Numbered from the stretch's first letter, positions 21,653-49,486 are shown. The stretch: 64,000 nt of DNA from an uncultured Clostridiaceae bacterium (GCA_947647275.1 CANSJQ010000001.1:319046-383045), one strand, 5' to 3'. The notes: a model not told the origin generated them from the letters alone. A program made the numbers and translations.

Positions 21653-21680
21653 TGTAGGGGTCGCAGCCATCGGCGATCTG
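21653..21680 (+). repeat. REP-like element (TGTAGGGG head plus palindrome GGGTCGC agccatcg GCGATC)
   Basis: Member of a family with at least 15 copies in the window. Forms an inverted pair with 21788..21815. Confidence 0.7.
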
Positions 21681-21787
21681 TGCTTCAAAGATATTACCAC
21701 AAAAGACAAATTCTATGAAAAATATAAAAAAGATATTTTACAATTTATCGTAAAATATACCACATATATGTATAAATAAGATATTGT

Positions 21788-21815
21788 GAGTCGCCGATGG
21801 CGGTGACCCCTACAT
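21788..21815 (-). repeat. REP-like element, inverted partner (gagtcgccgatggcggtgacccctaca)
   Basis: Reverse complement of the 21653 copy with 3 mismatches. Together they bracket ~105 bp of the tyrS 5' UTR. Confidence 0.7.
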
Positions 21816-21852
21816 ACAGATGAAAATAATATTAAATAAGGAGGAAAAAACA

Positions 21853-23079
21853 ATGACACTAGTAGAAGAACTAAAATGGAGAGGGCTAATAAAAGATATT
21901 TCTAGTCCAGATTTAGAAGAAAAATTAAATAAAGGAGGATTAACTTTCTATATAGGAACAGATCCAACAGCAGATAGTCTACATGTAGGACATTTATCAA
22001 GCTTTTTAATTTCAAAAAGATTAAAAGATGCAGGACATACACCAATACTATTAGTAGGTGGAGGAACAGGCATGATAGGTGACCCACGCCCAACAACAGA
22101 AAGAGCAATGATAGGAAAAGAAGAAGTAACGGCAAATTTCAAAAAACTAAAAGCACAAGTAGAAAAAATATTTGGTTTTGAAGTAGTAAACAACAACGAT
22201 TGGTATAAAGATATAAATGTAATAGATTTTTTAAGAGACTATGGAAAATATTTTAATGTAAACTATATGTTAGATAAAGATATAATAAGAAGAAGATTAG
22301 ACTCAGGAATAACTTATACAGAATTTTCATACATGATATTACAAGCATTAGACTTTAAATATTTACACGAACACAAAAATGTAGATTTACAATGTGCAGG
22401 TTCAGACCAATGGGGAAATATAACAGCAGGAATAGATTTAATAAGAAAATCTACTGGCGATGAAGTATATGGTTTCACAATGCCATTAGTAACAGACTCA
22501 CAAGGAAAGAAATTTGGAAAAAGTGAAGGAAATGCATTATGGCTAGATAAAGAAAAAACATCAAGCTACAAACTATATCAATTCTTTACAAACGTAGAAG
22601 ACAGCATGGTAATAGATTACTTAAAAATATACACATTCCTATCAAAAGAGGAAATAGAAGAATATGAAAGAAAAAATAATGAACATCCAGAATTAAGAGA
22701 AGCACATAAAGCACTAGCAAGAGAAATAATAACATTCTTACATGGAAAAGAAGAATATGAAAGAGCAGTAAACCTAGCAGACCACTTATTCAATAATAAA
22801 TTTAGCGACTTAACTAAAAAAGATATAGAAGACTTATTTGGAAGTGAGCAAATAAAAGAAATAGAAGAAAATCAAACAATAGCCGATTTAGCGGTAAACA
22901 TAGGAGCAGCCTCAAGCAAAAGAGAAGCAAGAGAATTTATAGCAAATGGCGCAATATCAGTAAACGGCGAAAAAATAACAGATGCTAGCATAATAATAGA
23001 TGAAAATATGTTTATAGAAGGAACATATATAATAGTAAAAAGAGGAAAGAAAAATTCGTATATAGGAAAGAAAAAGTAA
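21853..23079 (+). CDS. tyrS: Tyrosyl-tRNA synthetase
   Basis: HIGH motif (HVGHL), KMSKS (KFGKS), C-terminal S4 domain. RBS aaggagg. Preceded by a T-box leader. Confidence 0.95.
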   Translation: MTLVEELKWRGLIKDISSPDLEEKLNKGGLTFYIGTDPTADSLHVGHLSSFLISKRLKDAGHTPILLVGGGTGMIGDPRPTTERAMIGKEEVTANFKKLKAQVEKIFGFEVVNNNDWYKDINVIDFLRDYGKYFNVNYMLDKDIIRRRLDSGITYTEFSYMILQALDFKYLHEHKNVDLQCAGSDQWGNITAGIDLIRKSTGDEVYGFTMPLVTDSQGKKFGKSEGNALWLDKEKTSSYKLYQFFTNVEDSMVIDYLKIYTFLSKEEIEEYERKNNEHPELREAHKALAREIITFLHGKEEYERAVNLADHLFNNKFSDLTKKDIEDLFGSEQIKEIEENQTIADLAVNIGAASSKREAREFIANGAISVNGEKITDASIIIDENMFIEGTYIIVKRGKKNSYIGKKK

Positions 23080-23085
23080 ATTAAT

Positions 23086-23125
23086 ATAAAAAATAATGGA
23101 GAAATTTTCTCCATTATTTTTTATA
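23086..23125 (+). terminator. tyrS terminator (aatggagaaattttctccatt plus T-run). Copy 1 of a ~45-bp direct repeat.
   Basis: Near-identical copy at 24153..24190. Confidence 0.75.
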
Positions 23126-23136
23126 TTTGAATCGTT

Positions 23137-46560: not shown

Positions 46561-46592
46561 ACAGTTTTTTAAAATATTTAAGGAGAAAATAG

Positions 46593-48788
46593 ATGGAAGA
46601 AAAAGAAAAATTAATTTTAGACTTTATGTCAGAAGAAAGCTATGTTCCTATGAAAGCTAAGGAAATGGCTAGTATTTTGTGTGTTCCTAAAACAGAATAT
46701 TCAAGTTTTAGTGAAGTACTAAAAAAATTAGAGGAAGAATATAGAATTCAAAAAAATAGAAAATCTAAATATAGTTTGGTAGATTCTAACAGATATATAA
46801 CAGGTGTCTTTAGAGCTAATGAAAAGGGTTTTGGATTTGTTAAAATTAAAGATAGAGAAGATGAAGTTTATATCTCAAAAAGTCATACAAAGAATGCCTT
46901 AAATGGAGATACTGTTCTTATAGAAATATTAAAGGACGAAAAAGATAGTGGACATAGTGAAGAAGGAAAAATTATTAAAATATTAACTAGAGATAAAGAT
47001 ACTGTTGTAGGTGTTTTTATAAATAGTAAAAATTATGGTTTTGTTGTTCCAGATGATAGAAAATTAGGAACTGATATTTTTATATCTAAAAAGAATTTTG
47101 GAAAAGCACGTAATGATAGTAAGGTATTAGTAAAAATACTTAAATATCCTGAAAATGGTAAAAATGCTGAAGGTAAAGTAATAGAAGTATTAGGTAATAT
47201 TAATGAAGCAGGTGTTGATATGCTTTCATTAATTAAAGATTATAAACTTCCATACGAATTTCCAGAAGCAGTAGTAGAAGAGGCACAAAGTTATAAAGAA
47301 GAAGATATAAAAAATGATATTAAATGTAGATTAGATTTACGAGAAGAAGAAATTTTTACAATAGATGGGGAAGATGCAAAAGATTTAGATGATGCAGTTA
47401 ATGTAAAAAAATTAGAAAATGGTAATTTTGAACTTGGTGTTCATATAGCAGATGTAAGCCACTATGTAAAAGAAGATTCTAAATTAGATAAAGAAGCAAT
47501 AATACGTGGTACAAGTATATATATGTTAGATAGAGTAATACCAATGCTTCCACGTGAACTTTCAAATGGAATTTGTAGCTTAAATCAAAAGAAAGATAGA
47601 TTAACACTTTCTGTTATAATGGAAATTAATAATGAAGGACAAGTTGTATCTTCCCAAATTAAGAAAAGTGTTATAAATGTTACTAGAAGAATGAGTTATA
47701 ATGAAATTGCTACTATTTTGAAATATCTAAATAATGAAAAAAATGAAGAAAAGATAGAAAATACAAATAAAGCAAAAGAAAGAATAAATAAGTTAGAAAA
47801 AGACTTAAAACTATTAAAAGAATGCAAGCCATATTTTGAACATTTTAAACAAATGGAAGATTTAGCAAAAATATTAAAGCAAAGAAGAGAAAGACAAGGA
47901 AGTTTAAATTTAGACATTCCAGAAACTAAAATAGTGTTAGATAAAGACGGATTTGCAATAGATGTTAAAAAATATGAACTTACATTTGCAAATGAAATAA
48001 TAGAACAATTTATGCTTACAGCAAATGAAACAGTAGCTGAAACTTTTTATTGGTTAGAAGCACCTTTTATATACAGAGTACATGAAGAACCAGACGAAGA
48101 CAAAATTTTAGAATTAAATAAATTCTTATACAATTTTGGTTATAAAATAAAAGGAAGTAAAGACAACATTCACCCAAAAGCATTTGCAGAAGTATTAGAA
48201 GATATAAAAGGAAAAGAAGAAGAAAGAGTAATATCTACTTTAATATTAAGAACATTAAAAGTAGCAAGATATGAAAGTGAAAACAAAGGGCATTTTGGAA
48301 TAGCGAGCAAATATTATTGCCATTTCACATCCCCAATAAGAAGATACCCAGATTTATTTATTCATAGAGTAATTTCGAAATACCTAGCTGATAACTACAA
48401 TATAAGCGAAGAGATACTTGAAAAATATAGTGAACAAAGTACAAATTATGCTAACCAATCATCAGAAAGAGAAAAAGTAGCACAAAAAGTAGAAAGAGAT
48501 AGCATAGATATTAAAAAAGCCGAATTTATGCAAGACAAAATAGGAGAAGAATTTGAAGGAATAGTATCTAGTATAACATCATTTGGAATGTTTGTAGAAT
48601 TAGAAAGCACAGTAGAAGGTCTAATAAGATTTGAAAACTTAGGAGATGAATATTTTATATATGATGAAAATAGAAAAACTTTAACAGGAGAAAAAACAAA
48701 AATAACATATAAAATAGGAGATAAAGTAAAAATAAGAGTAATTCATGCAGACAAAATAACAAGACAGATTGATTTTGAAATAGTGTAA
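46593..48788 (+). CDS. rnr: Ribonuclease R
   Basis: HTH/cold-shock-like N-terminus, RNB catalytic domain, C-terminal S1 domain. 731 aa. Confidence 0.9.
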   Translation: MEEKEKLILDFMSEESYVPMKAKEMASILCVPKTEYSSFSEVLKKLEEEYRIQKNRKSKYSLVDSNRYITGVFRANEKGFGFVKIKDREDEVYISKSHTKNALNGDTVLIEILKDEKDSGHSEEGKIIKILTRDKDTVVGVFINSKNYGFVVPDDRKLGTDIFISKKNFGKARNDSKVLVKILKYPENGKNAEGKVIEVLGNINEAGVDMLSLIKDYKLPYEFPEAVVEEAQSYKEEDIKNDIKCRLDLREEEIFTIDGEDAKDLDDAVNVKKLENGNFELGVHIADVSHYVKEDSKLDKEAIIRGTSIYMLDRVIPMLPRELSNGICSLNQKKDRLTLSVIMEINNEGQVVSSQIKKSVINVTRRMSYNEIATILKYLNNEKNEEKIENTNKAKERINKLEKDLKLLKECKPYFEHFKQMEDLAKILKQRRERQGSLNLDIPETKIVLDKDGFAIDVKKYELTFANEIIEQFMLTANETVAETFYWLEAPFIYRVHEEPDEDKILELNKFLYNFGYKIKGSKDNIHPKAFAEVLEDIKGKEEERVISTLILRTLKVARYESENKGHFGIASKYYCHFTSPIRRYPDLFIHRVISKYLADNYNISEEILEKYSEQSTNYANQSSEREKVAQKVERDSIDIKKAEFMQDKIGEEFEGIVSSITSFGMFVELESTVEGLIRFENLGDEYFIYDENRKTLTGEKTKITYKIGDKVKIRVIHADKITRQIDFEIV

Positions 48789-48789
48789 A

Positions 48790-48828
48790 ACAAAATTGAT
48801 GGCGGAAACGCCATCAATTTTGTTACTA
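48790..48828. terminator. Bidirectional terminator between rnr and smpB
   Basis: aaaattgatggcg gaaa cgccatcaatttt. Confidence 0.75.
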
Positions 48829-49266
48829 TTACATATGTCTTTTTATATACATTTCTGCATCTTTTTTCTTCAAATCTTCACGTTTATCATAAAGTTTTTT
48901 ACCAGTTCCAATACCAAGCTCAACCTTTACAAAACTACCTTTAAAATACAAACTAATAGGAACTAAAGTATAGCCTTTTTGTTTAATTTGACCAACTAGT
49001 TTTCTAATTTCATTTTTATTTAAAAGTAATTTTCTATCTCTTAAAGGGTCTTTGTTAAAAATATTACCATGTTCATATGGGCTAATATGCATAGAATGAA
49101 TATATACCTCACCATTTTCAATACTAGCATAACTATCTTTTAAATTAACCTTACCGCTTCTAATAGATTTTATTTCTGTACCAGTCAAAACAATACCAGC
49201 CTCAACAGTATCATTAATATTATAATTATGCCTAGCAATAGGATTTTTAGCAATTAAATTAGACAT
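48829..49266 (-). CDS. smpB: SsrA-binding protein SmpB
   Basis: 145 aa with the conserved SmpB sequence ([27 protein letters not shown]). No ssrA (tmRNA) gene is adjacent, on either side. Confidence 0.95.
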
Positions 49267-49300
49267 ATATGTACCTCTCTTTTATATTAAATATATATAT

Positions 49301-49486
49301 CGTAGGGGTCGTAGCGTTCGGCGACCCGCATCACTAAACTAATTTTTATATAGGAAAAACCAATTTAAATGTATGGGCATGGTCTCTAAGTCCATCCGAT
49401 ATGTGAACATTATAACACAAAAAGAAAAATAATAAAAGAAAAAATATAAAAATTTACTTGAATAAGGGTAGACACAAGGCCTACCC
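49301..49486. repeat. Cluster of three REP-like units (cgtaggggtcgtagcgttcggcgacccgcatcac; tgtatgggcatggtctctaagtccatccg; gggtagacacaaggcctaccc)
   Basis: Same heads and palindromes as elsewhere in the window. The third unit is the reverse complement of the stem in the 41187 copy. Confidence 0.6.

Follow-up and report, generated by a model that had tools for sequence, protein, structure and literature searches.

Repeats in the Intergenic Spacers

The window analyzed here is a stretch of 64,000 nucleotides (64 kb) from an uncultured Clostridiaceae bacterium (GCA_947647275.1, CANSJQ010000001.1:319046-383045), in which short GC-rich hairpins with a GTAG head recur in the spacers between genes such as tyrS, cysS, secG, rnr, and smpB. 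These hairpins resemble the repetitive extragenic palindromes (REPs) associated with a class of enzymes known as REP-associated tyrosine transposases (RAYTs). The window has a GC content of about 27%, is at least 83% coding, and shows positive GC skew and AT skew along its whole length. We found 15 candidate sites, distributed over eight intergenic spacers from 21.6 to 49.5 kb (Table 1), and 0 of the 15 contained coding bases, in agreement with the initial annotation of this DNA, which had placed all copies between genes. It had also proposed that at least 15 palindromes share one head. Ten of the candidates are solid, canonical copies with a T-GTAG head and a stem opening with three G-C pairs, whereas the other five (28745, which had not been listed before, 45282, 45388 on the minus strand, 46344, and 46441) are degenerate or doubtful. 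The coordinates first given were approximately right; 21788, 45355/45390, and 46519/46560 are far ends of minus-strand copies whose heads lie at 21814, 45388, and 46551, respectively. The suggested link of the repeats to translation genes was not borne out, as nothing was found beyond ordinary housekeeping operons.

The units are about 30–46 nt long. Each consists of an unpaired T-GTAG followed by a GC-rich hairpin that opens with three G-C pairs, and in seven copies the hairpin is followed by a 5-nt linker ending in CT (or AT) and then by TCGAAGAAATTAC. Three stem types were recognized in the window. Type A, GGGTCGC-N8-GCGACCC (written with its head as the single strand TGTAGGGGTCGC..GCGACCC), occurs in six copies and is indeed the commonest palindrome, as had been noticed before; type B, GGGTAGGC..GTCTACC, occurs in three (39713 and 41187 on the plus strand and 49490 on the minus strand) and type C, GGGCATGG..CCATCC, in one (49370 on the plus strand). 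The head variants GTGG, GTAT, and ATAG are present in degenerate copies.

The over-representation of the head was confirmed in the window, where TGTAGGGG was observed 7 times versus 0.50 expected (0 of 100 shuffles reached 7) and the relaxed head TGTAKGRG 15 times versus 3.9 expected. Likewise, the 3′ tail is conserved: CTTCGAAGAAATTAC with up to 3 mismatches was found 15 times versus 2.7 expected, and its core CTTCGAAG 4 times versus 0.14 expected, with three of these four adjoining hairpins. A hairpin scan with DNA energy parameters and a cut-off of -6 kcal/mol recovered one copy only, and a scan by pairing rules missed bulged copies; the copies were therefore judged by a covariance model (CM), trained on 16 A-type copies, and by direct folds. 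The CM gave six strong matches in the window (21653, 30079, 39489, and 49301 on the plus strand and 21814 and 46551 on the minus strand; E 5e-12 to 3e-4), all of type A, nothing credible in the 64 kb outside 21.6–49.5 kb, and about 56 more matches at E < 0.01 in related low-GC loci. The local density is 10–15 copies per 64 kb, all inside 28 kb. Plus-strand copies (n = 9) carry GTAG on the GC-skew leading-strand sequence, i.e., the lagging-strand template, and each of the minus-strand copies (n = 4) is the inverted member of a doublet or cluster. This strand pattern fits single-strand transposition, yet it is confounded with gene orientation.

Table 1. Candidate REP copies and other features located in the same spacers of the window.
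Position	Strand	Feature	Context	Support
21405–21600	+	T-box leader of tyrS, not part of the repeat		RF00230, 58 bits, E 2.4e-10; gathering score 93
21653–21697	+	REP, A-type GGGTCGC..GCGATCT, with tail CTTCAAAGATATTAC	Left half of REPIN-like doublet, tyrS 5′ untranslated region	CM 42.9 bits, E 7e-11; doublet fold z -7.9
21785–21814	-	REP, A-type, inverted	Right half of doublet; plus-strand end 21814 about 39 nt upstream of likely tyrS ATG at 21853	CM 40.1 bits, E 5e-10
28745–28771	+	Marginal candidate, TGTAGGGG head, weak hairpin, no tail		CM 9 bits, E 2.6; fold -5.6 kcal/mol (RNA parameters)
30079–30108	+	REP, A-type	Lies 38 nt past stop codon of nucleotidyltransferase gene	CM 46.7 bits, E 5e-12; same site in strains L001–L003
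39489–39532	+	REP, A-type, one base shorter, with tail	Lies 24 nt past PBP1A stop codon	CM 21.5 bits, E 3e-4; strain alignment
39545–39666	.	Long palindrome (LP), 122 nt, separate repeat	Follows REP and tail	Repeat search
39713–39758	+	REP, B-type GGTAGGC..GTCTACC, with tail	Tail extends into cysS Shine-Dalgarno sequence	Sequence, fold, tail; in covariation alignment
41187–41230	+	REP, B-type, head TGTATGGG, with tail	Lies 13 nt past cysS stop codon	Relaxed head, tail, fold
45282–45323	+	Degenerate: head TGTAGGAG, poor hairpin, perfect tail		Relaxed head, tail, fold
45346–45388	-	Degenerate, inverted: head TGTAGAGG, tail-like CTTCAGCGAAATTGC		Sequence, fold
46344–46400	+	TGTAGGGG head fused to 55-nt terminator-like hairpin of another repeat family; doubtful REP	After secG	
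46441–46485	+	Degenerate: GTGG head TGTGGGGGG, imperfect stem, weak tail		Sequence, fold; CM 15 bits at same place in strains L001–L004
46506–46551	-	REP, A-type, with tail, inverted	Plus-strand end 46551 is 41 nt upstream of rnr	CM 43.7 bits, E 4e-11; tail 1 mismatch
49301–49330	+	REP, A-type, CGTAG head (TGTAG or TGTGG in other strains)	Between smpB and next gene	CM 41.7 bits, E 2e-10
49370–49398	+	REP, third stem type GGGCATGG..CCATCC, head TGTATGGG		Relaxed head, fold
49466–49490	-	REP, B-type, inverted, head TATAGGG		8–9 bp perfect stem

Stem Covariation and Folding of Doublets

A covariation alignment was made from 32 copies of the window and ten other loci; as these sequences are related and not independent, the figures are descriptive. 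In the 9-bp helix, 87.5% of the cells are standard pairs, compared to 71% in shuffles (0 of 500 reached the observed value), and the same count with the partner column slid gave at most 50% paired. Six of the nine pairs have changes on both sides, in 40 cells, and pairing is kept in all five unrelated stem sequences. The basal pairs 6-29, 7-28, and 8-27 are G-C in 26–27 of the 32 copies, nearly all others being G-U. The unpaired GTAG head is better conserved than the stem, with T3, A4, G6, and G8 of the alignment invariant and G2, G5, and G7 conserved in at least 90% of the copies. The stem evolves by compensatory substitutions while the head and the basal G-C pairs hold fixed.

Three inverted doublets had been proposed; by the heads of their copies they are 21653/21814, 45282/45388, and 46441/46551. 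Folded as single-stranded DNA, the first (21650–21817) forms a single long hairpin whose arms measure 28 nt (-34 kcal/mol, z -7.9), the second (45279–45397) folds weakly (z -2.7), and the third (46438–46554) gives no joint hairpin (z 0.2). Doublets of other loci fold like the first (L045, z -5.6; L140, z -5.3; L017, z -5.0). The three doublets of the window have no common spacer sequence, and their stems differ.

Strains and Close Relatives

Human-gut metagenome contigs (n = 15) and the metagenome-assembled genome (MAG) GCA_948850135.1 encode a cysS protein identical to that of the window; together with the window, we refer to them as species A. In the species A strains L001–L004, almost all copies are found at the window positions with few point changes. 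The sole difference in the copies among strains is in the rnr-smpB spacer, where L002–L004 have a segment of about 285 nt, holding a perfect A-type REP with its tail, versus a 45-nt terminator in the window and L001. Given that five of the six A-type copies of the window have one or two stem mismatches and that positions are identical in five strains, the family looks old in this species, where it is probably a largely inactive relic population.

Species B is represented by a mouse-gut MAG (GCA_949902805.1) whose cysS is 96% identical. REPs are found in the same spacers in species B, but they are different ones. In the spacer between cysS and a DUF1189 gene, the stem is of B-type in species A and of A-type in species B, with the same head, the same tail, and the same 122-nt palindrome following it. 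The two species also differ past ftsH, with an ordinary terminator in species A and a REP in species B. In relatives with cysS 86, 85, and 82% identical, there are zero copies across the syntenic 21 kb. Their PBP1A-cysS spacers measure 158, 77, and 20 nt, respectively, versus 305 nt here, and the spacers in the cysS region 20–158 nt versus 252–305 nt here. The repeats are therefore lineage-specific additions. They turn over between species and are static within species A, and the differences among strains and species are replacements of whole spacer segments.

Wider Distribution

The 18-base pattern GTAGGGGNCGNAGNNNTCGGCGA was scanned in one genome per GTDB species and matched at least 118 loci. 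The complete element, with T before GTAG and a closing CCC, is present at no fewer than 9 loci in at least 8 low-GC Clostridia MAG species from human, mouse, rabbit, and other sources, and, among the matches listed, at two loci of one Synergistaceae MAG contig with 45% GC. Among the matches listed there are also about 100 high-GC loci, of which about 8 have a CCC-like end, 2 have a T-head with a near-closing end, and 0 have both features; these matches are read as chance because so few close the hairpin and none has both, and the pattern is too permissive for high-GC genomes. Further copies at the loci with the complete element have other stems, among them GGGCGGAA..TTCCGCCC, GGGCAGAT..ATCTGCCC, and GGGACGC..GCGTCCC. 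These loci also contain tight inverted pairs as well as "double-foot" copies, in which the hairpin has GTAG on either side.

The Synergistaceae contig (WRHH01000019.1) carries the A-type REP TGTAGGGGTCGCAGCCCTCGGCGACCCG as well as other GTAG hairpins (L028 at 4812 and 4942; L071 at 1707, 1768, and 4885). Their occurrence in a different phylum suggests either horizontal spread of REP and RAYT or a very conserved recognition hairpin.

The RAYT Partner Gene

A RAYT/TnpA_REP gene was found in four related REP-bearing genomes (L016, 1314–1811; L126, 7721–8225; L132, 10001–10486; L140, 5037–5540). These genomes also have dispersed intergenic REPs, some of them tailed. The open reading frame (ORF) of L016, located directly upstream of an rsmB-like gene, reads MNYNLPQRKNLRLKYYDYSLEGYYFITICIKDR...IIMPNHIHLIM...IWQRNYYEHIIRN...YITNNPYNW. 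A database search returned 6,608 homologues, many with the Pfam family PF01797, and one source names the protein "REP element-mobilizing transposase RayT." In NCBIfam, "REP-associated tyrosine transposase" is the top-scoring model (62 bits, with a cut-off of 80), and the only PDB match is TnpA_REP of Escherichia coli (4ER8, E 5.5e-4). The RAYT protein P0249, which NCBIfam and the PDB did match, had no Pfam match at E 0.001, probably due to REP-encoded loops that split the domain. Among the 127 closest homologues, the HuH motif NH[IVL]H is found in 120, the W motif is WQ in 120 of the 120 in which it was found (the other 7 had no match to the search pattern), and most have the Y motif YIxNN[PIV]. 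On these motifs the partner gene is assigned to RAYT/TnpA_REP subclass 2.4, which is Bertels group 4 (Quentin et al., 2018; PMC6006769).

Two REPs lie inside the RAYT frame of L016, L126, L132/L133, and L140, one in sense and one inverted, about 200 nt apart. The sense REP encodes VGVALxGDP and the inverted one GSPRxATPT; in L132 and L140 the frame is intact, with the loops VGVALLGDP and GSPRSATPT. The second loop is present in 49 of the 127 homologues and both loops in 30. The doublet 21653–21814 was considered as a decayed RAYT gene of this kind and dropped because the sequence between its REPs had no similarity to that of the genes, either in alignment or in in-frame translation, and its left copy has an ordinary tail.

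In L016 and L126, and also for P0125, P0137, and P0259–P0262, a +1 frameshift splits RAYT exactly where the inverted internal REP has its 5′ edge (ACA AAA C|GGG TCG CC); this break is shared by two lineages with about 79% identity and recurs in at least 6 independent metagenomes. The out-of-frame C-terminal half, which contains the catalytic Tyr region and is conserved, is open for 58 codons, compared to about 0.12 stops per codon in the +1 frame of that genome; between the L016 and L126 lineages it has 39 identical, 5 synonymous, and 14 non-synonymous codons. The frameshift could be recoding or very recent decay. That the REP hairpin has come to control its own transposase, with recoding or another REP-dependent switch setting the amount of RAYT, and forms with the CT tail and the stem swaps a distinct, self-limiting, cassette-like variant is a speculative idea that we consider rather improbable.

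The RAYT neighborhood differs in each of the four genomes, and two contexts occur in one species: L132–L139, human-gut contigs of one species, carry the identical RAYT protein (P0249, 10001–10486) in two chromosomal contexts, with a small HTH_Rpn_C gene adjacent and large adhesin/pilin-like genes alongside. The rsmB-like methyltransferase gene of the window consists of two overlapping ORFs (15541–16146 and 16100–16459), compared to a single 300-aa ORF in L016; the split is a frameshift or a pseudogene.

Interpretation and Alternative Explanations

We conclude that the repeats are probably GTAG-class REP elements handled by RAYTs of subclass 2.4. The REP reading of the initial annotation is supported by the GTAG head at the hairpin foot, the compensatory stem, the extragenic location, at least one REPIN-like fold (REPIN, a REP doublet forming a hairpin), and the presence of RAYT in four relatives. 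Some copies are in REPIN-like inverted pairs and are mixed with other short repeats in mosaic spacers akin to the bacterial interspersed mosaic elements (BIMEs) of E. coli.

Enzymes of groups 2 and 3 use GTAG both for recognition and as the guide for cutting single-stranded DNA at a CT (or CA) 5′ or 3′ of the hairpin (PMC8266576). By analogy, each unit would fold in single-stranded DNA into a GC-rich hairpin with a foot of three G-C pairs and an unpaired T-GTAG in front; a RAYT of subclass 2.4, an HUH-tyrosine nuclease related to IS200 transposases, would recognize GTAG and the hairpin and would cut at a nearby CT dinucleotide, and the cut would let units be copied or replaced at intergenic sites. 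Of 13 copies with a tail, 11 have a CT at +4/+5 from the stem, and the CT of the tail would suit a 3′ cleavage site.

Several points weigh against this explanation. No RAYT was found in the 64-kb window by tblastn or by a hidden Markov model of 127 homologues searched against all six-frame ORFs, as the initial annotation had stated, nor was one found for the species of the window, of whose genome the 64 kb and flanks were covered, the RAYT contigs of P0249 and P0245 being from other species; the spacer upstream of the rsmB-like gene, where RAYT is located in L016, is empty in the window. We infer that a RAYT acts now, or acted formerly, in this genome. The action of a group 4 RAYT on such hairpins would likewise follow from its likeness to group 2 and 3 enzymes, and the 15-nt tail is not among the described features of REPs. 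A clean pair of filled and empty insertion sites was not recovered among the strains and species compared. Replicating near-identical doublets, as in active REPIN populations, were not seen, judged on 64 kb. GTAG-class REPs usually exceed 100 copies per genome, and the 10–15 counted here come from 64 kb.

The hairpins might instead work primarily at the RNA level, in operon punctuation, 3′-end protection, or a leader, kept by selection and never mobile as DNA. REPs of E. coli stabilize upstream mRNA, and in line with such a role the copies at 30079, 39489, and 41187 lie 13–38 nt past the stops of co-directional genes, the single copies in plus-strand operons are all in sense orientation, and the place of the ordinary terminator hairpin past ftsH is taken by a REP in species B. 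However, the canonical copies have no T-run, match no Rfam family, and occur in both orientations, also upstream of genes. Moreover, the unpaired GTAG, which an RNA stabilizer does not need, outdoes the stem in conservation, and the same element is present within RAYT reading frames and in a different phylum. A purely RNA-level origin is thus unlikely, although an RNA-level role would be compatible with the REP explanation as a secondary use: transcribed copies would stabilize or punctuate mRNAs, and, as in E. coli, those that closely follow the stop codon of a co-directional gene may shield the 3′ end of an mRNA. It is very unlikely that the repeats are ends or miniature derivatives of IS200/IS605 elements, i.e., palindrome-associated or miniature inverted-repeat transposable elements (PATEs or MITEs), moved by classical TnpA(IS200) and not by RAYT. 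The ends of IS200/IS605 are subterminal hairpins with a 5′ guide tetranucleotide, and many of the tails end in TTAC, which is the target sequence of IS608. Subclass 1.1 TnpA is also common in Clostridia (PMC6006769). But no paired, distinct left and right ends enclose a unit, neither tnpA(IS200) nor tnpB turned up in the window or in the related loci examined, the GTAG head with a GGG/CCC stem foot is the signature of subclass 2.4 REPs, and the gene motifs are NHIH/WQ/YIxNN and not the DH[VI]H/W[TS]/Y[IV]ENQ of IS200.

The palindromic core TCTTCGAAGA of the tail and the full palindrome GGTAAATTCTTGGAAGAAGTTACC, which lies without a REP upstream of a gene at 17724–17749, would be in keeping with double-stranded DNA sites to which a host protein binds, such as operators or sites of nucleoid or recombination proteins, and which recur through shared regulation. 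E. coli REPs bind gyrase and DNA polymerase I; binding to integration host factor (IHF) is mentioned in one report (PMC2817692). Yet the stem sequence is free to change while pairing is kept, which points to a folded single strand and not to a duplex motif; in addition, the flanking genes have no common function beyond housekeeping. We consider such protein sites extremely unlikely.

RNA Families, Terminators, and Other Repeats in the Same Spacers

No Rfam family matched anywhere in the window at gathering scores, and no tRNA genes were found. A permissive Rfam scan of 20–51 kb had a sole real match, the T-box leader of tyrS; the default scan is empty over the 64 kb because this T-box scores well under the gathering score. 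The T-box ends 53 nt before the first REP copy, so that the doublet 21653–21814 sits between it and the tyrS ribosome-binding site. That the copies are parts of Rfam-type leaders was ruled out, as no Rfam family covers them and the T-box is the only one nearby. Intrinsic terminators were ruled out as well for the canonical copies, because their hairpins are followed by GAATA, GCACTTCG, or similar sequences without a T-run; only 46344, which belongs to another family, has one.

That other family is a dispersed, terminator-like 55-nt hairpin, GGGCTTAATCGGT...ACCGAATTATGCCC, followed by a T-rich stretch, at 12120–12173, 46344–46400, and 60819–60872, each at the 3′ end of a gene; the TGTAGGGG head is on the 46344 copy only. 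The LP has 37-nt AT-rich arms and a 47-nt GC-richer center. It is found twice in species A (the second copy at 41258–41375 of the window) and once in species B (L141, 11523–11644), and each copy lies 12–30 nt downstream of a REP with its tail. The fold of the whole LP spacer has z -6.6, and no Rfam family matched the LP, which is probably a separate MITE-like or structured-RNA repeat. The REP-free palindrome at 17724–17749 (AGGTAAATTCTTGGAAGAAGTTACCT, 26 nt), which precedes a MatE/cytidylate-kinase-like fusion gene by about 80 nt, resembles two head-to-head REP tails; it could represent either an operator or a target site that is empty.

Three further observations concern other parts of the window. 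A promoter region with the first ~25 codons of a gene, encoding a lipoprotein-like signal peptide (MKKKIILFLSVLL..), is duplicated with 94% identity at 5137–5312 and 45418–45594, 40 kb apart. L002 and L003 have an extra copy of a 125-aa gene after ftsH. Strains L001–L004 appear to lack a 272-aa ORF (34053–34871) that is flanked in the window by the RNase Y gene and an xerC/D-like integrase gene, as judged from gene tables and a spacing shorter by about 960 nt and not from alignment.

Significance and Comparison with Known Systems

Work on REPs and RAYTs has so far been almost entirely in Proteobacteria, and the statement of the initial annotation that such a system is not typical for clostridia holds in that no published description was found; the literature consulted contained nothing specific on REPs or RAYTs from either Clostridia or Firmicutes. 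Subclass 2.4, or group 4, is common in Cyanobacteria, Bacteroidetes, Chlorobia, and Caldilineae and "scattered" elsewhere, and it is not reported from Clostridia (PMC6006769; PMC5581495). Bertels et al. (2017; PMC5581495) described group 4 as common in Cyanobacteria, Chlorobia, and Caldilineae and named Clostridia for group 1 only, and in the survey of GTAG repeats in Proteobacteria, Cyanobacteria, Chloroflexi, and the Planctomycetes-Verrucomicrobia-Chlamydiae (PVC) group, the words Firmicutes and Clostridia are absent (Di Nocera et al., 2013; PMC3733652). Uncultured AT-rich gut Clostridia are thus a new host lineage for REP and RAYT, and three details are unreported: the tail, the in-place replacement of stem types, and the RAYT genes frameshifted at an internal REP.

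This extends the host range to abundant, uncultured, and very AT-rich gut Clostridia, in which GC-rich hairpins are easy to trace. The head, the three G-C pairs, the free stem sequence, and the CT-bearing tail are natural material for studying recognition by group 4 RAYTs. Spacers in these small genomes grow by mosaic insertion of repeats, as in the PBP1A-cysS spacer (20 nt versus 305 nt). Repeats of this kind cause breaks in MAG assemblies and can pass for regulatory RNAs; one REPIN-like pair sits in the tyrS leader itself, with the T-box on one side and the start codon on the other.

The closest likeness is to the REPs and transposases (REPtrons) of subclass 2.4, which have REPs with three G-C pairs at the stem base, "double-foot" REPs, and the motifs NH[IFV]H, WQ, and YIxNNP, and in which in-frame REPs within the transposase gene were called "a remarkable and unique feature" (Quentin et al., 2018; PMC6006769). 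The repeats described here share the GT[AG]G head at the foot, the three basal G-C pairs, and the "double-foot" variants (L046, 4115–4146; L126, 1824), and the RAYT genes of relatives share these protein motifs and the inserted REPs. They differ in the host, which has ~27% GC, in the conserved 15-nt 3′ tail on many units, in the second REP located upstream of the HuH motif, and in the frameshift that part of the RAYT genes have at their internal REP.

Like the REPs and BIMEs of E. coli, which are served by the group 2 enzyme TnpA_REP (4ER8), the repeats combine GTAG with an imperfect palindrome, are extragenic and often just past stops, and form mosaic spacers of REPs and other short motifs; GTAG-guided CT cleavage would also be the likely chemistry here. 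In contrast, the E. coli stems are longer and have a bulge that is required by the enzyme, the E. coli TnpA_REP gene is flanked by REPs and not interrupted by them, and the protein similarity is weak (E 5.5e-4). As in the REPINs of Pseudomonas fluorescens, which belong to group 3 RAYTs (Bertels and Rainey, 2011), inverted REPs form one long hairpin (21650–21817; L045, L140, and L017). The Pseudomonas REPINs are, however, large populations of near-identical doublets, whereas here the doublets vary in spacer and stem and most copies are singlets. Finally, the short stem-loop, the GTAG at one end, and the multiple families per genome are shared with the GTAG-tagged REP superfamily as a whole (PMC3733652).

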